Origin: a virus
Lineage: Duplodnaviria; Heunggongvirae; Uroviricota; Caudoviricetes
IMG/VR virus record: IMGVR_UViG_2690315922_000004
Direction: 5' to 3' (one strand)
Length of the DNA: 14,851 nucleotides
A model generated the notes under the pieces. That model ran no database searches. It worked only from the letters and a program-made list of their open reading frames with translations, and was not told the DNA's origin. A program made the position numbers and the translations under genes. Below, piece by piece: positions 1,319 to 14,613 of this stretch. Positions within the stretch are counted from its first letter, which is position 1; every line of letters begins with the position of its first letter.

Positions 1319-1499
1319 AATGTTGCCCCATATTCAGTGTTGCTGGTTTGTATTTTCTGAAGTTGCTTTTACGTTAATTTGATGTGGATCAATTGATGCA
1401 ATGCCTGCGTCATAATTGATCATTTCTTGTGGTTAGATTGCGTACACACACGTTCTGATGAGTCATCATGCAGATGATAACTATTCTCATTTTTTGTGG

Positions 1500-1716
1500 G
1501 TCCTTTCCGGCGATCTGACAGGCTACGGGGCGGAAGGCGCGCGGGTTTTCGCTATTTATGAAAATTTTCCGGTTTAAGGCGTTTCCGTTCTTCTTCTCCG
1601 TAACTTCATGTTTTTATTTAAAACACCCCCTGAAAAGAAAGGAAACGACAGGTGCTGAAAACGAGCTTTTTGGCCTCTGTCGTTTCCTTTCTCTGTTTTT
1701 GTCCGTGGAATGAACA
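1500..1716. other. cos: cos site region: cosQ, cosN and cosB terminase recognition elements, with the cosN 12-nt cohesive-end homolog at ~1528-1539
   Basis: Sequence ...GGTCCTTTCCGGCGATCTGACAGGCTACG | GGGCGGAAGGCG | CGCGGGTTTTCGCTATTTATGAAAATTTTCCGGTTTAAGGCGTTTCCGTTCTTCTTC... is near-identical to the lambda right-end/left-end junction and to the cosB region upstream of Nu1. The overhang differs from canonical GGGCGGCGACCT (see findings). Confidence 0.8.
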
Positions 1717-2236
1717 ATGGAAGTCAACAAAAAGCAGCTGGCTGACATTTTCGGTGCGAGTATCCGTACCATTCAGAACTGGCAGGAACAGGGAATGCCC
1801 GTTCTGCGAGGCGGTGGCAAGGGTAATGAGGTGCTTTATGACTCTGCCGCCGTCATAAAATGGTATGCCGAAAGGGATGCTGAAATTGAGAACGAAAAGC
1901 TGCGCCGGGAGGTTGAAGAACTGCGGCAGGCCAGCGAGGCAGATCTCCAGCCAGGGACTATTGAGTACGAACGCCATCGACTTACGCGTGCGCAGGCCGA
2001 CGCACAGGAACTGAAGAATGCCAGAGACTCAGCTGAAGTGGTGGAAACCGCATTCTGTACTTTCGTGCTGTCACGGATCGCAGGTGAAATTGCCAGTATT
2101 CTTGACGGGATCCCTCTCTCGGTACAGCGGCGTTTTCCGGAACTGGAAAACCGACATGTTGATTTCCTGAAACGGGATATCATCAAAGCCATGAACAAAG
2201 CAGCCGCGCTGGATGAACTGATACCGGGGTTGCTGA

Positions 2237-2262
<26 letters not shown>
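1717..2262 (+). CDS. Nu1: Terminase small subunit gpNu1 (181 aa)
   Basis: MEVNKKQLADIFGASIRTIQNWQEQGMPVLRGGGKGNEVLYDSAAVIKWYAERDAEIENEKLRREVEELRQ... is essentially lambda gpNu1 (winged-HTH DNA-binding N-terminus), with the same length and position relative to cos. Confidence 0.95.
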
Positions 2263-5949
<3,687 letters not shown>

Positions 5950-5969
<20 letters not shown>

Positions 5970-7269
5970 TCTCCCGCATATTGCCAGCATGGCCTTTAAT
6001 GAGCCGCTGATGCTTGAACCCGCCTATGCGCGGGTTTTCTTTTGTGCGCTTGCAGGCCAGCTTGGGATCAGCCGCCTGACGGATGCGGTGTCCGGTGACA
6101 GCCTGACTGCCGGAGAGGCACCCGCGGCGCTGGCGTTATCCGTTGATGATGACGGACCACGACAGGCCCGCAGTTATCAGGTCATGAACGGCATCGCCGT
6201 GCTGCCGGTGTCCGGCACGCTGGTCAGCCGGACGCGGGCGCTGCAGCCGTATTCGGGGATGACCGGTTACAACGGCATTATCGCCCGTCTGCAACAGGCT
6301 GCCAGCGATCCGATGGTGGACGGCATTCTGCTCGATATGGACACGCCCGGCGGGATGGTGGCGGGGGCATTTGACTGCGCTGACATCATCGTCCGTGTGC
6401 GTGACATAAAACCGGTATGGGCGCTGGCCAATGACATGAACTGCAGTGCAGGTCAGCTGCTTGCCAGCGCCGCTTCCCGGCGTCTGGTCACGCAGACCGC
6501 CCGGACAGGCTCCATCGGCGTCATGATGGCTCACAGTAATTACGGCGCTGCGCTGGAGAAACAGGGCGTGGAAATCACGCTGATTTACAGCGGCAGCCAT
6601 AAGGTGGATGGCAACCCCTACAGCCATCTTCCGGATGACGTCCGGGAGACACTGCAGTCCCGGATGGATGCAACCCGCCGGATGTTTGCACAGAAGGTGT
6701 CGGCATATACCGGCCTGTCCGTGCAGGCTGTTCTGGATACCGAGGCTGCAGTGTACAGCGGTCAGGAGGCCATTGATGCCGGACTGGCTGATGAACTTGT
6801 TAACAGCACCGATGCGATCACCATCATGCGTGATGCACTGGATGCACGTAAATCCCGTCTCTCAGGAGGGCGAATGACCAAAGAGACCCAATCAACAACT
6901 GTTTCAGCCACTGCTTCGCAGGCTGACGTTACTGACGTGATGCCAGCGACGGAGGGCGAAAACGCCAGCGCGGCGCAGCCGGACGTGAACGTGCAGATCA
7001 CCGCAGCAGTTGCGGCAGAAAACAGCCGCATTATGGGGATACTCAACTGTGAGGAGGCTCACGGACGCGAAGAACAGGCCCGAGTGCTGGCAGAAACCCC
7101 CGGTATGACCGTGGAAACGGCCCGCCGCATTCTGGCCGCAGCACCACTGAGTGCACAGGCGCGCAGTGATACTGCGCTGGATCGTCTGATGCAGGGGGCA
7201 CCGGCACCGCTGGCTGCAGGTAACCCGGCATCTGATGCCGTTAACGATTTGCTGAACACACCAGTGTAA
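5950..7269 (+). CDS. C: Head maturation protease / scaffold fusion gpC (439 aa), GTG start
   Basis: The ORF-track frame 5803-7269 contains the lambda gpC sequence starting at V(M)TAELRNLPHIASMAFNEPLMLEPAYARVFF... GTG at 5950 is preceded by GAGGAGGAG (5938-5946) and overlaps the B 3' end, giving 439 codons as in lambda C. The upstream extension to 5803 is rejected. Confidence 0.9.
6664..7269 (+). CDS. Nu3: Scaffolding protein gpNu3 (201 aa), from an internal in-frame start within C
   Basis: In-frame ATG at 6664 (MDATRRMFAQKVSAYTGLSVQ...) shares the C stop at 7269. Length 606 nt matches lambda Nu3, which is nested in the 3' third of C. Confidence 0.75.
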   Translation: MDATRRMFAQKVSAYTGLSVQAVLDTEAAVYSGQEAIDAGLADELVNSTDAITIMRDALDARKSRLSGGRMTKETQSTTVSATASQADVTDVMPATEGENASAAQPDVNVQITAAVAAENSRIMGILNCEEAHGREEQARVLAETPGMTVETARRILAAAPLSAQARSDTALDRLMQGAPAPLAAGNPASDAVNDLLNTPV

Positions 7270-7278
7270 GGGATGTTT

Positions 7279-7611
7279 ATGACGAGCAAAGAAACCTTTA
7301 CCCATTACCAGCCGCTGGGCAACAGTGACCCGGCTCATACCGCAACCGCGCCCGGCGGATTGAGTGCGAAAACGCCTGCAATGACCCCGCTGATGCCGGA
7401 TACCTCCACCCGTAAGCTGGTTGCGTGGGATGGCACCACCGACGGTGCTGCCGTTGGCATTCTTGCTGTTGCTGCTGACCAGACCAGCACCACGCTGACG
7501 TTCTACAAGTCCGGCACGTTCCGTTATGAGGATGTGCTCTGGCCGGAGGCTGCCAGCGACGAGACGAAAAAACGGACCGCGTTTGCCGGAACAGCAATCA
7601 GCATCGTTTAA
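7279..7611 (+). CDS. D: Head decoration protein gpD (110 aa)
   Basis: [110 protein letters not shown] is lambda gpD. The true start is the second ATG of track ORF 7273-7611. Confidence 0.9.
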
Positions 7612-7627
7612 CCTTACCCTCATCACT

Positions 7628-7652
7628 AAAGGCCGCCTGTGCGGCTTTTTTT
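7628..7652 (+). terminator. GC stem-loop plus T7 run in the D-E intergenic region (possible weak terminator or attenuator)
   Basis: GCCGC (7632-7636), loop CTGT, GCGGC (7641-7645), then TTTTTTT (7646-7652), immediately upstream of the E start. The same structure is present in lambda. Confidence 0.35.
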
Positions 7653-7665
7653 ACGGGATTTTTTT

Positions 7666-8691
7666 ATGTCAATGTACACAACCGCCCAGCTGCTGGCGGC
7701 AAATGAGCAGAAATTTAAGTTTGATCCGCTGTTTCTGCGTCTCTTTTTCCGTGAGAGCTATCCCTTCACCACGGAGAAAGTCTATCTCTCACAAATTCCG
7801 GGGCTGGTAAACATGGCGCTGTACGTTTCGCCGATTGTTTCCGGTGAGGTTATCCGCTCCCGTGGCGGCTCCACCTCTGAATTTACGCCGGGATATGTCA
7901 AGCCGAAGCATGAGGTGAATCCGCAGATGACCCTGCGTCGCCTGCCGGATGAAGATCCACAGAATCTGGCGGACCCGGCTTACCGCCGCCGTCGCATCAT
8001 CATGCAGAACATGCGTGACGAAGAGCTGGCCATTGCCCAGGTGGAAGAGATGCAGGCCGTTTCTGCCGTGCTTAAGGGCAAATACACCATGACCGGTGAA
8101 GCCTTCGATCCGGTTGAGGTGGATATGGGCCGCAGTGAGGCGAATAACATCACGCAGTCCGGCGGCACGGAGTGGAGCAAGCGTGACAAGTCCACGTATG
8201 ACCCGACCGACGATATCGAAGCCTACGCGCTGAACGCCAGCGGTGTGGTGAATATCATCGTGTTTGATCCGAAAGGCTGGGCACTGTTCCGTTCCTTCAA
8301 AGCCGTCAGGGAGAAGCTGGATACCCGTCGCGGCTCTCATTCCGAGCTGGAGACAGCGGTAAAAGACCTGGGCAAAGCGGTGTCCTATAAGGGAATGTAT
8401 GGCGATGTGGCCATCGTCGTGTATTCCGGACAGTACGTGGAAAACGGCGTCAAAAAGAACTTCCTGCCGGACAACACGATGGTGCTGGGGAACACTCAGG
8501 CTCGCGGTCTGCGCACCTATGGCTGCATTCAGGATGCGGACGCACAGCGCGAAGGCATTAACGCCTCTGCTCGTTACCCGAAAAACTGGGTGACCACCGG
8601 CGATCCGGCGCGTGAGTTCACCATGATTCAGTCAGCACCGCTGATGCTGCTGGCTGACCCTGATGAGTTCGTTTCCGTACAACTGGCGTAA
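7666..8691 (+). CDS. E: Major capsid protein gpE (341 aa)
   Basis: MSMYTTAQLLAANEQKFKFDPLFLRLFFRESYPFTTEKVYLSQIPGLVNMALYVSPIVSGEVIRSRGG... is near-identical to lambda gpE. The start is taken at ATG 7666, not the upstream 7639 of the track ORF. Confidence 0.95.
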   Translation: MSMYTTAQLLAANEQKFKFDPLFLRLFFRESYPFTTEKVYLSQIPGLVNMALYVSPIVSGEVIRSRGGSTSEFTPGYVKPKHEVNPQMTLRRLPDEDPQNLADPAYRRRRIIMQNMRDEELAIAQVEEMQAVSAVLKGKYTMTGEAFDPVEVDMGRSEANNITQSGGTEWSKRDKSTYDPTDDIEAYALNASGVVNIIVFDPKGWALFRSFKAVREKLDTRRGSHSELETAVKDLGKAVSYKGMYGDVAIVVYSGQYVENGVKKNFLPDNTMVLGNTQARGLRTYGCIQDADAQREGINASARYPKNWVTTGDPAREFTMIQSAPLMLLADPDEFVSVQLA

Positions 8692-8732
8692 TCGTGGCCC
8701 TTCGGGGACATTTTCTCTCTGTGGAGGAGTTC

Positions 8733-9119
8733 ATGACGAAAGATGAACTGATTGCCCGTCTTCAGGAGCTGGGTGAGCAACTGAACCGCGATGTCAGTTT
8801 GAGGGGAACGAAAGAAGAACTGGCGCTCCGTGTGGCAGAGCTGGAAGAGGAGCTTGATGACACTGCCGATCAGGATACCCCTATCAGCCCGGAAAATGCG
8901 CTGACCGGACATGAAAATGAGGCTGTATCAGCGCAGCCGGATACCGTGACTGATACGGCTGATCTGGTCACGGTTGTGGCACTGGTGACGCTGCATACTG
9001 ATGCACTTCACGCCACGCGGGATGAGGCTGTGGCATTTGTGCTGCCGGGAACGGCGTTCCGTGTCTCTGCCGGTGTGGCAGCTGAAATGACAGAACGTGG
9101 CCTGGTCAGAATGCAATAA
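8733..9119 (+). CDS. FI: DNA-packaging accessory protein gpFI (128 aa)
   Basis: MTKDELIARLQELGEQLNRDVSLRGTKEELALRVAELEEELDD...GVAAEMTERGLVRMQ matches lambda gpFI, with GGAGG upstream of ATG 8733. It is slightly shorter than lambda FI because of small differences in the central acidic linker. Confidence 0.85.
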   Translation: MTKDELIARLQELGEQLNRDVSLRGTKEELALRVAELEEELDDTADQDTPISPENALTGHENEAVSAQPDTVTDTADLVTVVALVTLHTDALHATRDEAVAFVLPGTAFRVSAGVAAEMTERGLVRMQ

Positions 9120-9130
9120 CGGGAGGCGCT

Positions 9131-9484
9131 GTGGCTGATTTCGATAACCTGTTCGATGCTGCCATTGCCCGCGCCGATGAAACGATACGCGGGTACATGG
9201 GAACGTCAGCCACCATGACATCCGGTGAGCAGTCCGGTGCGGTGATACGTGGTGTTTTTGATGACCCTGAAAATATCAGCTATGCCGGGCCGGGCGTGCG
9301 TGTTGAAGGCTCCAGCCCGGCCCTGTTTGTCCGGACTGATGATGTGCGGCAGCTGCGGCGCGGCGACACGCTGACCATCGGTGAGGAAAACTTCTGGATA
9401 GACCGGGTTTCGCCGGATGATGGCGGAAGCTGTCATCTCTGGCTTGGGCGTGGCGTGCCGCCTGCCGTTAACCGTCGCCGCTGA
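9131..9484 (+). CDS. FII: Head-tail connector protein gpFII (117 aa), GTG start
   Basis: (M)ADFDNLFDAAIARADETIRGYMGTSATMTSGEQSGAVIRGVFDDPENISYAGPGVRVEGSSPALFVRTDDVRQLRRGDTLTIGEENFWIDRVSPDDGGSCHLWLGRGVPPAVNRRR is lambda gpFII, 117 aa as in lambda. Confidence 0.9.
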   Translation: MADFDNLFDAAIARADETIRGYMGTSATMTSGEQSGAVIRGVFDDPENISYAGPGVRVEGSSPALFVRTDDVRQLRRGDTLTIGEENFWIDRVSPDDGGSCHLWLGRGVPPAVNRRR

Positions 9485-9495
9485 AAGGGGGATGT

Positions 9496-10074
9496 ATGGC
9501 CATACAGGGTCTTGAGCAGGCCGTTGAAAACCTCAGCCGTATCAGCAAAACGGCGGTGCCCGGTGCCGCCGCAATGGCCATTAACCGCGTTGCTTCATCC
9601 GCGATATCGCAGTCGGCGTCACAGGTTGCCCGTGAGACAAAGGTACGCCGGAAACTGGTAAAGGAAAGGGCCAGGCTGAAAAGGGCCACGGTCAAAAATC
9701 CGCAGGCCAGAATCAAAGTTAACCGGGGGGATTTGCCCGTAATCAGGCTGGGGAATGCGCGGGTTGTCCTGTCCCGCCGCAGGCGTCGTAAAAAGGGGCA
9801 GCGTTCATCCCTGAAAGGTGGCGGCAGCGTGCTTGTGGTGGGTAACCGTCGTATTCCCGGCGCGTTTATTCAGCAACTGAAAAATGGCCGGTGGCATGTC
9901 ATGCAGCGTGTGGCCGGGAAAAACCGTTACCCCATTGATGTGGTGAAAATCCCGATGGCGGTGCCGCTGACCACGGCGTTTAAACAGAATATTGAACGGA
10001 TACGGCGTGAACGTCTTCCGAAAGAGCTGGGCTATGCGCTGCAGCATCAACTGAGAATGGTAATAAAGCGATGA
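9496..10074 (+). CDS. Z: Tail completion protein gpZ (192 aa)
   Basis: 192 aa at the conserved position after FII; MAIQGLEQAVENLSRISKTAVPGAAAMAINRVASSAISQSASQVARETKVRRKLVKERARLKRATVKNPQARIKVNRGDLPVIRLGNARV... matches lambda gpZ. Confidence 0.9.
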   Translation: MAIQGLEQAVENLSRISKTAVPGAAAMAINRVASSAISQSASQVARETKVRRKLVKERARLKRATVKNPQARIKVNRGDLPVIRLGNARVVLSRRRRRKKGQRSSLKGGGSVLVVGNRRIPGAFIQQLKNGRWHVMQRVAGKNRYPIDVVKIPMAVPLTTAFKQNIERIRRERLPKELGYALQHQLRMVIKR

Positions 10075-10466
10075 AACATACTGAACTCCGTGCAGCCGTA
10101 CTGGATGCACTGGAGAAGCATGACACCGGGGCGACGCTTTTTGATGGTCGCCCCGCTGTTTTTGATGAGGAGGATTTTCCGGCAGTTGCCGTTTATCTCA
10201 CCGGCGCTGAATACACGGGCGAAGAGCTGGACAGCGATACCTGGCAGGCAGAGCTGCATATCGAAGTTTTCCTGCCTGCTCAGGTGCCGGATTCAGAGCT
10301 GGATGCGTGGATGGAGTCCCGGATTTATCCGGTGATGAGCGATATCCCGGCACTGTCAGATTTGATCACCAGTATGGTGGCCAGTGGCTATGACTACCGG
10401 CGCGACGATGATGCGGGCCTGTGGAGTTCAGCCGATCTGACTTATGTCATTACCTATGAAATGTGA
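10071..10466 (+). CDS. U: Tail terminator protein gpU (131 aa)
   Basis: [131 protein letters not shown] is lambda gpU; ATGA overlap with Z. Confidence 0.9.
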
Positions 10467-10473
10467 GGACGAT

Positions 10474-11214
10474 ATGCCTGTACCAAATCCTACAATGCCG
10501 GTGAAAGGTGCCGGGACCACACTGTGGGTTTATAAGGGGAACGGTGACCCTTATGCGAACCCGCTTTCAGACGTTGACTGGTCGCGTCTGGCTAAAGTTA
10601 AAGACCTGACGCCCGGCGAACTGACCGCTGAGTCCTATGACGACAGTTATCTCGATGATGAGGATGCGGACTGGACCGCGACCGGACAGGGGCAGAAATC
10701 CGCCGGAGATACCAGCTTCACGCTGGCGTGGATGCCCGGAGAGCAGGGGCAGCAGGCGCTGCTGGCGTGGTTTAATGAAGGTGATACCCGTGCCTATAAA
10801 ATCCGCTTCCCGAACGGCACGGTCGATGTGTTCCGCGGCTGGGTCAGCAGTATCGGTAAGGCAGTAACGGCGAAGGAAGCGATCACCCGCACGGTGAAGG
10901 TCACCAATGTGGGCCGTCCGTCAATGGCAGAAGATCGCAGCACGGTGACGGCAGCAACCGGTATGACCGTGACACCCGCCAGTGCTTCCGTAGTGAAAGG
11001 GCAGAGCACGACGCTGACCGTGGCATTCCAGCCGGAAGGTGCAACCGACAAGAGCTTCCGTGCGGTGTCTGCGGATAAAACAAAAGCCACCGTGTCGGTC
11101 AGTGGTATGACCATCACCGTGAAGGGCGTCGCTGCAGGCAAGGTCAACATTCCGGTTGTATCCGGTAATGGTGAGTTTGCTGCGGTTGCAGAAATCAACG
11201 TCACCGCCAGTTAA
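10474..11214 (+). CDS. V: Major tail tube protein gpV (246 aa) with C-terminal Ig-like (Big_2-type) domain
   Basis: [123 protein letters not shown]... is lambda gpV. The start is taken at ATG 10474 (246 aa), not the track ORF's upstream 10444. Confidence 0.9.
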
Positions 11215-11229
11215 TCCGGAGAGTCAGCG

Positions 11230-11652
11230 ATGTTTCTGAAAACCGAATCATTTGAACATAACGGCGTGACCGTCACGCTTTCTGAACTGTCAGCCCTGCA
11301 GCGCATTGAGCATCTCACCCTGATGAAACGGCAGGCAGAACAGGCGGAGTCAGACAGTAACCGGAAGTTTACTGTGGAAGACGTCATCAGAACCGGCGCT
11401 TTTGTGGTAGCGATGTCCCTGTGGCATAACCATCCGAAGAAGACGCAGATGCCGTCCATGAATGAAGCCGTTAAACAGATTGAGCAGGAAGTGCTCACCA
11501 CCTGGCCCACAGAGGCGATTTCTCATGCTGAAAACGTGGTGTACCGGCTGTCCGGTATGTATGAGTTTGTGGTGAATGATGCCCCTGAACAGGCAGAGGA
11601 CGCCGGGCCTGCAGAGCCTGTTTCTGCGGGAAAGTGTTCGACGGTGAGCTGA
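11230..11652 (+). CDS. G: Tail assembly chaperone gpG (140 aa)
   Basis: MFLKTESFEHNGVTVTLSELSALQRIEHLTLMKRQAEQAESDSNRKFTVEDVIRTGAFVVAMSLWHNHPKKTQMPSMNEAVKQIEQEVLTTWPTEAISHAENVVYRLSGMYEFVVNDAPEQ... is lambda gpG, 140 aa. Confidence 0.9.
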   Translation: MFLKTESFEHNGVTVTLSELSALQRIEHLTLMKRQAEQAESDSNRKFTVEDVIRTGAFVVAMSLWHNHPKKTQMPSMNEAVKQIEQEVLTTWPTEAISHAENVVYRLSGMYEFVVNDAPEQAEDAGPAEPVSAGKCSTVS

Positions 11653-12059
11653 GTTTTGCCCTGAAACTGGCGCGTGAGATGGGGCGACCCGACTGGCGTG
11701 CCATGCTTGCCGGGATGTCATCCACGGAGTATGCCGACTGGCACCGCTTTTACAGTACCCATTATTTTCATGATGTTCTGCTGGATATGCACTTTTCCGG
11801 GCTGACGTACACCGTACTCAGCCTGTTTTTCAGCGATCCGGATATGCATCCGCTGGATTTCAGTCTGCTGAACCGGCGCGGGGCTGACGAAGAGCCTGAA
11901 GATGATGTGCTGATGCAGAAAGCGGCAGGGCTTGCCGGAGGTGTTCGTTTTGGTCCGGACGGGAATGAAGTTATCCCCGCTTCCCCGGACATGACGGAGG
12001 ATGACGCAATGCTGATGACAGTATCAGAAGGGATCGCAGGAGGAGTCCGGTATGGCTGA
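11230..12059 (+). CDS. G-T: Tail assembly chaperone fusion gpG-T, produced by programmed -1 ribosomal frameshift at 11628-11634
   Basis: The T-frame ORF (track 11634-12059, ...FDGELSFALKLAREMGRPDWRAMLAGMSSTEYADWHRFYSTHYFHDVLLDMHFSGLTY...) has no independent start with an RBS and is in the -1 frame relative to G. It begins at the slippery heptamer G GGA AAG near the G 3' end, exactly as in lambda G/GT. Confidence 0.8.
11628..11634 (+). other. Programmed -1 frameshift slippery heptamer GGGAAAG (G to G-T recoding site)
   Basis: Read directly: G GGA AAG in the G frame at 11628-11634, six codons before the G stop (TGA 11650-11652). This is identical to the lambda slippery site. Confidence 0.8.
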
Positions 12060-14613
12060 ACCGGCAGGCGATCTGGTCGTTGATTTAAGTCTGGATGCAG
12101 CCAGATTTGACGAGCAGATGGCCAGAGTCAGGCGTCATTTTTCCGGTACGGAAAGTGATGCGAAAAAAACAGCGGCAGTTGTTGAGCAGTCGATGAACCG
12201 GCAGGCGCTGGCTGCACAGAAAGCGGGGATTTCCGTCGGGCAGTATAAAGCCGCCATGCGTATGCTGCCTGCACAGTTCACCGACGTGGCCACACAGCTT
12301 GCAGGGGGGCAGAATCCCTGGCTGATTCTGCTGCAACAGGGCGGTCAGGTTAAGGACTCCTTCGGCGGGATGATCCCCATGTTCAGGGGGCTTGCCGGTG
12401 CAGTCACCCTGCCAATGGTCGGGGTCACCTCGCTGGCGGTGGCAACCAGTGCGCTGGTGTATGCCTGGTATCAGGGTGACTCAACCCTGTCCGATTTCAA
12501 CAAAACGCTGGTCCTTTCCGGTAATCAGGCGGGACTGACGGCAGATCGTATGCTGGTCCTGTCCAGAGCCGGGCAGGCGGCAGGGCTGACGTTTAACCAG
12601 ACCAGCGAGTCACTGACGGCGCTGGTGAATGCCGGTGTGCGTGGTGGTGAGCAGTTTGAGGCGATCAGCCAGAGTGTGGCGCGTTTCTCCTCTGCATCGG
12701 GCGTGGAGGTGGACAAGGTCGCTGAAGCCTTCGGGAAGCTGACCACTGACCCGACGTCGGGGCTGACGGCGATGGCGCGCCAGTTCCATAACGTGACGGC
12801 GGAGCAGATTGCGTATGTTGCTCAGTTGCAGCGTTCCGGCGATGAAGCCGGGGCATTGCAGGCGGCGAACGAGGCCGCAACGAAAGGGTTTGATGACCAG
12901 ACCCGCCGCCTGAAAGATAACATGGGCACGCTGGAGACCTGGGCAGATAAGACAGCACGGGCATTTAAATCCATGTGGGATGCGGTGCTGGATATTGGTC
13001 GTCCTGATACCGCGCAGGAGATGCTGATTAAGGCAGAGGCTGCGTTTAAGAAAGCAGACGATATCTGGAATCTGCGCAAGGATGATTATTTTGTTAACGA
13101 TGAAGCACGGGCGCGTTACTGGGATGATCGTGAAAAGGCCCGTCTTGCGCTTGAAGCCACCCGAAAGAAGGCTGAACAGCAGAGTCAACAGGACAAAAAT
13201 GCGCAGCAGCAGAGCGATACCGAAGCGTCACGGCTGAAATATACCGAAGAGGCGCAGAAGGCTTACGAACGTCTGCAGACTCCGCTGGAGAAATATACCG
13301 CCCGTCAGGAAGAACTGAACAAGGCACTGAAGGACGGGAAAATCCTACAGGCAGATTACAACACGCTGATGGCGGCAGCGAAAAAGGACTATGAAGAGAC
13401 GCTGAAAAAGCCGAAACAGTCCGGCGTGAAGGTGTCTGCGGGCGATCGTCAGGAAGACAGTGCTCATGCTGCCCTGCTGACGCTTCAGGCAGAACTCCGG
13501 ACGCTGGAGAAGCATGCCGGAGCGAATGAGAAAATCAGCCAGCAGCGCCGGGATTTGTGGAAAGCGGAAAATCAGTTCGCAGTACTGGAGGAGGCAGCAC
13601 AACGTCGCCAGCTGTCCGCACAGGAGAAATCCCTGCTGGTACATAAAGAGGAGACGCTGGAGTACAAACGACAACTGGCGGAGTTAGGCGATAAGGTCGA
13701 ACATCAGAAACGCCTGAATACACTGGCGCAGCAGGCGGATAAATTCGCACAGCAACAACGGGCAAAACGGGCTGCCATTGATGCGAAAAACCGGGGGATG
13801 ACAGACTGGCAGGCAGCGCGGGAAGCCACGGAACAGCGCCTGAAGGAACAGTATGGCGATAATCCGCTGGCGCTGAATAACGTCCTGTCAGAGCAGAAAA
13901 AGACCTGGGCGGCTGAAGACCAGCTTCGCGGGAGCTGGATGGCAGGCCTGAAGTCCGGCTGGAGTGAGTGGGAAGAGAGCGCCACGGACAGTATGTCGCA
14001 GGTTAAAAGTGCAGCCACGCAGACCTTTGATGGTATTGCGCAGAATATGGCGGCGATGCTGACCGGCAGTGAACAGAACTGGCGCAGCTTCACCCGTTCC
14101 GTGCTGTCCATGATGACAGAAATTCTGCTAAAGCAGGCAATGGTGGGGATTGTCGGGAGTATCGGCAGCGCCATTGGCGGGGCTGTTGGTGGCGGCGCAT
14201 CAGCGTCAGGCGGTACAGCCATTCAGGCAGCTGCGGCGAAATTCCATTTTGCGACCGGAGGTTTTACGGGGACCGGCGGCAAATATGAGCCAGCGGGGAT
14301 TGTCCACCGTGGTGAATTTGTCTTCACGAAGGAGGCAACCAGCCGGATTGGCGTGGGGAATCTTTACCGGCTGATGCGCGGCTATGCCACCGGCGGTTAT
14401 GTCGGTGGCACCGGAAGTCCGGCGCAAATGCGGCGTTCAGAGGGTATCAGGTTTGAGCAGAACAACAACGTGGTGATTAACAACGACGGTACGAATGGTC
14501 TGCCAGGTCCACAGATGATGAAGGCGGTGTATGACATGGCCCGCAAGGGTGCCCGTGATGAAATCCAGGCACAGATGCGCGATGGTGGTCTGTTCTCCGG
14601 AGGTGGACGATGA
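12052..14613 (+). CDS. H: Tail tape measure protein gpH (853 aa)
   Basis: 853 aa as in lambda gpH. Long coiled-coil-rich central region, glycine-rich segment near the C-terminus (GSIGSAIGGAVGGGASASGGTA) and the conserved gene order between T and M. Its start overlaps the T-frame stop. Confidence 0.95.
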   Translation: MAEPAGDLVVDLSLDAARFDEQMARVRRHFSGTESDAKKTAAVVEQSMNRQALAAQKAGISVGQYKAAMRMLPAQFTDVATQLAGGQNPWLILLQQGGQVKDSFGGMIPMFRGLAGAVTLPMVGVTSLAVATSALVYAWYQGDSTLSDFNKTLVLSGNQAGLTADRMLVLSRAGQAAGLTFNQTSESLTALVNAGVRGGEQFEAISQSVARFSSASGVEVDKVAEAFGKLTTDPTSGLTAMARQFHNVTAEQIAYVAQLQRSGDEAGALQAANEAATKGFDDQTRRLKDNMGTLETWADKTARAFKSMWDAVLDIGRPDTAQEMLIKAEAAFKKADDIWNLRKDDYFVNDEARARYWDDREKARLALEATRKKAEQQSQQDKNAQQQSDTEASRLKYTEEAQKAYERLQTPLEKYTARQEELNKALKDGKILQADYNTLMAAAKKDYEETLKKPKQSGVKVSAGDRQEDSAHAALLTLQAELRTLEKHAGANEKISQQRRDLWKAENQFAVLEEAAQRRQLSAQEKSLLVHKEETLEYKRQLAELGDKVEHQKRLNTLAQQADKFAQQQRAKRAAIDAKNRGMTDWQAAREATEQRLKEQYGDNPLALNNVLSEQKKTWAAEDQLRGSWMAGLKSGWSEWEESATDSMSQVKSAATQTFDGIAQNMAAMLTGSEQNWRSFTRSVLSMMTEILLKQAMVGIVGSIGSAIGGAVGGGASASGGTAIQAAAAKFHFATGGFTGTGGKYEPAGIVHRGEFVFTKEATSRIGVGNLYRLMRGYATGGYVGGTGSPAQMRRSEGIRFEQNNNVVINNDGTNGLPGPQMMKAVYDMARKGARDEIQAQMRDGGLFSGGGR

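Follow-up and report, generated by a model that had tools for sequence, protein, structure and literature searches.

Does an otherwise lambda-like cos site with an altered cohesive end still serve a working packaging module? The question arises from a 14,851-nt stretch of viral DNA (IMG/VR record IMGVR_UViG_2690315922_000004), hereafter the window, in which the first-pass annotation had described an unusual 12-mer at the cohesive-end position and had offered three explanations: the terminase copes with a changed right half-site, mature ends would fail to anneal with those of lambda, or the cos is defective in a decaying prophage. Our comparative analysis indicates that this is very probably the functional cos of a lambda-type packaging module, carrying a second natural cohesive-end allele.

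Direct reading and a MAFFT alignment place GGGCGGAAGGCG (window positions 1528-1539) opposite the lambda cohesive end GGGCGGCGACCT. The alignment comprised the window, lambda (record PV340536), an O26 prophage with canonical cos, PhiR46_1 and an E. coli prophage, and it runs from cosQ to the Nu1 start without a gap. Relative to lambda the changes are C7A, G8A, A9G, C10G and T12G, which alter 5 of the 12 positions, all within the right half; bp 1-6 and bp 11 are those of lambda. The altered 12-mer and the clustering of its five substitutions are thus confirmed, and comparison with lambda gave no match to the canonical overhang. The flanks are near-identical to lambda, as had been described: the left flank reads ...GACAGGCTACG in the window and GACAGGTTACG in lambda, and the right flank, CGCGGGTTTTCGCTATTTATG, is the same in both. 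The range originally singled out, 1525-1552, consists of ACG, the 12-mer and 13 bases of the right flank. The subsites of the window are as follows.

1498-1504, plus strand: cosQ (GGGTCCT), the packaging-termination signal, an exact lambda heptamer at lambda spacing, about 30 bp upstream of cosN
1526-1541, plus strand: cosN, the 16-bp nicking site, made up of CG, the 12-bp cohesive end and CG
1528-1539, plus strand: predicted 12-nt 5' cohesive end GGGCGGAAGGCG, with the right-end complement CGCCTTCCGCCC; nick positions by homology
1577-1692, plus strand: cosB, comprising R3, R2 and R1, with the I1/IHF interval between R3 and R2
1577-1592: R3, exact lambda sequence, with the cosN-R3 spacing of lambda (R3 at bp 50-65)
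1636-1651: R2 (inverted), exact lambda sequence
1677-1692: R1, exact lambda sequence

The location of R3 at bp 50-65 is as published (PMC9026076). A 5'-CG-3' is retained outside both nick sites (1526-1527 and 1540-1541), and these dinucleotides are described as highly conserved, and cosQ as conserved (PMC4669245); cosQ is also invariant among the loci in our cos-site alignment. Set against lambda, then, cosQ, the CG flanks, bp 1-6 and 11, R3, R2, R1 and their spacing are all identical in the window, whereas the right half CGACCT has become AAGGCG. Judged by its sequence, the site is a lambda-type cos in every respect save the identity of its cohesive end, and identity of the cohesive end to lambda is no defining feature of cos under the definition used in the field. 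An Rfam scan of the whole window returned no RNA families overlapping the cos site. Separately, the R2-R1 interval is one base shorter in the window than in lambda J02459 (window 1660-1670 versus J02459 bp 133-140), which puts the Nu1 start at bp 190 from the cohesive end, versus 191. This one-base indel is absent when the window is compared with several other lambda records, and PV340536 is gap-free.

The altered overhang differs little from that of lambda in its predicted energetics. The nearest-neighbour dG37 of the overhang duplex is -17.8 kcal/mol for the variant versus -18.2 kcal/mol for lambda, and G+C amounts to 10 of 12 bases in each. Self-annealing of variant ends is therefore predicted to be about as stable as that of lambda ends. 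Rotational symmetry of the overhang has been redistributed compared with lambda: the overhang loses the pairs 3/10 and 6/7, gains 4/9 and keeps 2/11.

Downstream of cos lie the lambda packaging, head and tail genes from Nu1 to H.

1717-2262, plus strand: Nu1 (TerS), 181 aa, 99.4% identical to lambda Nu1 (Pfam PF07471, 9e-101)
2237-4162, plus strand: gpA (TerL), 641 aa, with ATPase and endonuclease domains, 98.3% identical to lambda (PF05876, PF20454)
4159-14613, plus strand: head and tail genes W, B, C/Nu3, D, E, FI, FII, Z, U, V, G(T) and H

The lambda head and tail genes that are complete in the window, from Nu1 to H, are all full length. Twelve lambda proteins from W to H (n=12, T left out of the queries) can each be aligned over the whole length at 85-99% identity, and none is truncated. 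The nearest match to the window among complete E. coli genomes is strain 377323_2f, at 97.7% identity. The 98.3% identity of gpA over 641 aa bears out its description as almost identical to lambda, 11 of the 641 residues being different. Other features lie upstream of cos. These are a 19-nt tandem repeat, TATTTTTGTTTGTTATTTA, at 552-611 (3.2 copies, 92% matches), in an AT-rich stretch upstream of a PerC-family regulator gene (698-1012, PF06069), and a small DUF3950 ORF on the minus strand (1181-1318) between the PerC-family gene and cos.

Changes confined to the right half of cosN have precedents. Mutations at cosN bp 7-12 have minimal effect, and the symmetric changes at bp 1-6 are severe; G2C carries a tenfold cost and C11G none (Feiss et al. 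2015, PMC4669245, citing Xu & Feiss 1991). The tolerance at bp 7-12 is attributed to cosB-bound TerS, which anchors TerL for bottom-strand nicking (PMC4669245). Natural right-half variants occur in N15 and phiD326 (bp 9 and 12) and in Gifsy-1 (bp 8, 9 and 11), and lambda TerL gives equal yields from cosN-lambda and cosN-N15; two mismatches between ends entail an approximately fourfold loss of yield (PMC4669245). By its sequence, the window allele belongs to this known class of natural right-half cosN variants. The label "variant" is fair; right-half cosN variation, which the first-pass annotation did not take into account, is an established phenomenon. Searching the literature for the exact 12-mer and for its complement brought up nothing but unrelated primers from plant and Streptomyces work, and no description of the allele was found there.

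The known variants resemble the window to different degrees. N15 and phiD326 have a 12-nt 5' overhang with an unchanged left half and natural variation in the right half, and N15, like the window, has G at bp 12; our reading of the N15 record confirmed its end as GGGCGGCGTCCG, and the first 12 bases are annotated there as a 12-base 5' sticky end. Relative to lambda, N15 has changes at only two positions (9 and 12) and the window at five; N15 also encodes its own TerS and a TerL with 65% identity to that of lambda, and its cosB is simple, in contrast to the lambda-type cosB and terminase of the window. The cosN of the Salmonella phage Gifsy-1 is also lambda-like, with changes in the right half only (PMC4669245); it has three changes rather than five, bp 11 is changed in Gifsy-1 but conserved in the window, and its host and packaging specificity are different. 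The cos sites of PICIs, Gram-negative satellites (cos-rpp), have cosQ and cosN nearly identical to those of their helper phages (PMC9026076); the window, by contrast, is no satellite but has the complete packaging and virion module of a phage. The window allele has the most divergent right half that we observed with a lambda-identical terminase.

The variant 12-mer recurs widely. A megablast query of 49 nt centred on the variant, for which seeding requires at least part of the variant right half in the target, matched 156 of the 5,426 complete E. coli genomes; of the places matched, 151 are chromosomal and 16 are on plasmids. Exact-pattern scans identified 55 IMG/VR contigs with lambda-like flanks (82 with a looser left flank) and 31 contigs in a metagenome collection, chiefly from human gut and food. 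Two records in a phage collection, PhiR46_1 and YDC107_1, carry the variant 12-mer, and GTDB species representatives gave one true match, Escherichia sp. E1V33. Two further GTDB matches, in environmental MAGs, were taken as chance because their flanks and genes are unrelated. Phages 1H12, 4B5 and 2G7a were considered as genomes with variant ends, since their BLAST alignments spanned the 12-mer from record position 1, and were rejected when reading gave the canonical GGGCGGCGACCT.

The sequences around the variant are diverse. The 12-mer occurs on about 30 distinct left-flank (cosQ-cosN spacer) haplotypes and adjoins three cosB/TerS classes: a lambda-type class; a class in which Nu1 is 83% and gpA 98-99.5% identical to lambda; and a class with a distant Nu1-like protein (35% identical). 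The 83%-Nu1 class (L263, L266, L268, L270, L272 and others) has the right flank ...CCGGGGAAAATCATGTCGGTACTTCTCG, a left flank ending in CACG and a cosQ-cosN spacer 1 bp shorter. This class presumably represents a distinct packaging specificity with lambda TerL in common.

If the altered cohesive end depended on an altered terminase, allele and protein should vary together, and we compared them directly. We aligned 71 complete gpA sequences, of which 40 come from loci with canonical cosN and 31 from loci with the variant; none of their positions follows the allele, and the 11 differences between the window and lambda are either polymorphic in both classes or private to the window. An identical 641-aa gpA is found beside the variant in one locus (L138) and beside canonical cosN in another (L078), and most variant-linked gpAs are no more than 1-3 residues from a canonical-linked one. 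Nu1 behaves likewise: four of its sequences are common to both allele classes, and none of its positions tracks the allele. Among 151 aligned cos sites (-80 to +75), the two classes are separated in DNA solely by bp 7, 8, 9, 10 and 12. Comparison among prophages with the same Nu1 and gpA, as the first-pass annotation had proposed, thus finds identical proteins beside both forms of cosN. Together with the published tolerance at bp 7-12 (PMC4669245), this supports its suggestion that an unchanged lambda-type gpA and Nu1 tolerate the altered right half-site, as far as sequence comparison can indicate.

Several other explanations can be weighed against these data. Many E. coli lambdoid prophages are defective, and with lambda as the sole comparison five clustered changes in 12 bp resemble damage, as if packaging had been lost through decay of the cos in a cryptic prophage. 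The remaining cos subsites show no damage, however, nor do any of the head and tail genes that are complete in the window, and the identical 12-mer stands on about 30 flank haplotypes, beside three TerS classes, in 156 genomes and in two deposited phages. Recurrence of the same five changes rules out random decay as their source; we thus consider a dead cos very improbable, and the idea of a defective site in a decaying prophage does not hold up. A sequencing or assembly artefact in the window, for which the G+C-rich context is the single argument, has practically no likelihood, because hundreds of independent assemblies, made by different projects on different platforms, contain this same sequence, and neither chance nor sequencing error accounts for that. 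This recurrence also disposes of the artefact that the first-pass annotation had named as a possible refutation.

A changed gpA or Nu1 that has become specific for the new right half-site would fit the 11 gpA residues that differ from lambda, and gpA mutations that can broaden cosN specificity have reportedly been described by Arens et al. (1999). Given that no gpA or Nu1 position co-varies with the allele, those 11 included, and that identical gpA and four identical Nu1 sequences accompany both alleles, we reject such co-evolved specificity as highly unlikely. The site might instead be functional but cut differently, with shifted nicks or another overhang length. The T to G change at bp 12 adjoins the bottom-strand nick, and none of the 113 viral and metagenome contigs with the variant 12-mer (IMG/VR and metagenome scans, with no left-flank requirement) begins or ends at it; in the PhiR46_1 and YDC107_1 records, too, cos is internal. 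Against this, CG is unchanged at both nicks, as is the cosN-R3 spacing by which gpA is positioned, and N15 likewise has G at bp 12 with its annotated 12-base end. A different cut therefore appears very unlikely to us.

We favour the reading in which this is a functional, lambda-type cos with a second cohesive-end allele, and propose that it works as follows. Nu1 dimers would bind R3, R2 and R1 of cosB, IHF would bend the interval that separates them, and cosB-bound Nu1 would anchor gpA. The top strand would then be nicked between 1527 and 1528 and the bottom strand between 1539 and 1540, to leave 12-nt 5' overhangs, GGGCGGAAGGCG at the left end and CGCCTTCCGCCC at the right. Because right-half nicking relies on cosB anchoring and not on base-specific recognition, ordinary lambda gpA should cut the variant. 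We know of no published mutant that combines five right-half changes, and the efficiency of cleavage may accordingly be reduced. Both chromosome ends would come from one site and so be perfectly complementary, and with a predicted duplex stability like that of lambda, normal cyclisation after injection is expected. One variant end and one lambda end would pair with five mismatches, and poor cyclisation is expected; since two mismatches already cost about fourfold in yield, the incompatibility should be strong. It is plausible that variant ends are incompatible with lambda ends. Such incompatibility, offered earlier as an alternative to terminase tolerance, accompanies it and is no competing reading.

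The variant is found in several kinds of elements. PhiR46_1 (PV340565.1, L320) was deposited as the complete genome of a phage whose host is E. coli ECOR13. Its record annotates telL/telR, it carries a RepA-like primase, ParAB and the whole of a lambda-type virion module, and its variant cosN lies upstream of Nu1. Variant-bearing "plasmids" of about 46 kb are N15-like linear plasmid-prophages with a lambda-type virion module; one of them, L261 (NZ_LR883007.1, 46,243 bp), encodes a protelomerase and a RepA-like replication protein. Plasmids make up 16 of 167 variant places versus 35 of 8,086 among all lambda-like cos matches. Such plasmid-prophages must be packaged, injected and cyclised through their cohesive ends to become established as plasmids, and their occurrence is indirect evidence that the variant cos works.

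The exact variant cosN also occurs in a satellite or PICI-like element in IMG/VR (L067 1-6500, also L130, L161 and L168). It has genes for a D5-like primase (DUF5906), SSB, an E-like capsid protein with 41% identity to lambda E, a decoration protein of the D-like kind, and AlpA; these are followed by cosQ and the variant cosN, a gene for a Nu1-like protein (180-183 aa, 35% identity) that starts at +146, and an Abi_C gene. The two loci that extend far enough, L067 and L168, show the element adjoining a truncated lambda E (aa 80-341) and then FI, and in L067 the lambda genes run on from FI through to M. The Nu1-like class of this satellite is also found beside the cosN alleles AGACCT, CAGACG and GGGCGT-CGACCT.

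Two targeted scans for mixed states, with cosQ and the left half held constant, recovered the following additional right halves.

CGTCCG: 47 loci, the N15 type
CGACCG: 8 loci
AGACCT: 6 loci
CAGACG: 5 loci
CAGCGG: 2 loci
CAGGCG: 1 locus, with the spacer and right flank of the window; one step from the window allele
AAGGCT: 1 locus, one step from the window allele
AAGCGT: 1 locus
CTGACG: 1 locus

Right-half polymorphism is common in the lambda supergroup. An IMG/VR scan in which the whole 12-mer was left free yielded 120 loci, of which 113 are canonical, 4 are variant and 3 read GGGCGTCGACCT, the last with a left-half change, GGGCGT (G6T). These allele-unbiased lambda-type cos sites (L007-L126), a redundant sample counted with no phylogenetic correction, show two right-half haplotypes (116 CGACCT and 4 AAGGCG), the adjacent 14-bp spacer 19 and bp +13 to +18 nine. 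One-step intermediates between the canonical and variant right halves are very rare. The contrast in haplotype number hints, as a lead only, that the right half of lambda-type cos sites may drift less readily than an absence of selection would imply. Potentially the right half could exist as a few discrete cohesive-end compatibility types that are selectively maintained and do not drift freely, a suggestion that we regard as speculative and rather doubtful. If mismatched ends lower infectivity, selection for the common type would keep each type intact.

The variant amounts to a natural experiment at population scale, in which one lambda terminase is paired with two cohesive ends that differ at five of six right-half positions, and it supports the functional asymmetry of cosN. 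Tools and annotators that rely on the exact lambda end will overlook the cos of about 3% of complete E. coli genomes, as well as that of a family of N15-like linear plasmid-prophages. Lambda arms and cosmid ends should not anneal with the DNA of variant phages. The finding also raises an evolutionary question, whether cohesive-end alleles are neutral or are maintained as compatibility groups. If compatibility types do exist, one with five mismatches would form a partial barrier: a chromosome packaged from one cos type to the other, among co-resident lambdoid prophages, linear plasmid-prophages or satellites, would not cyclise.
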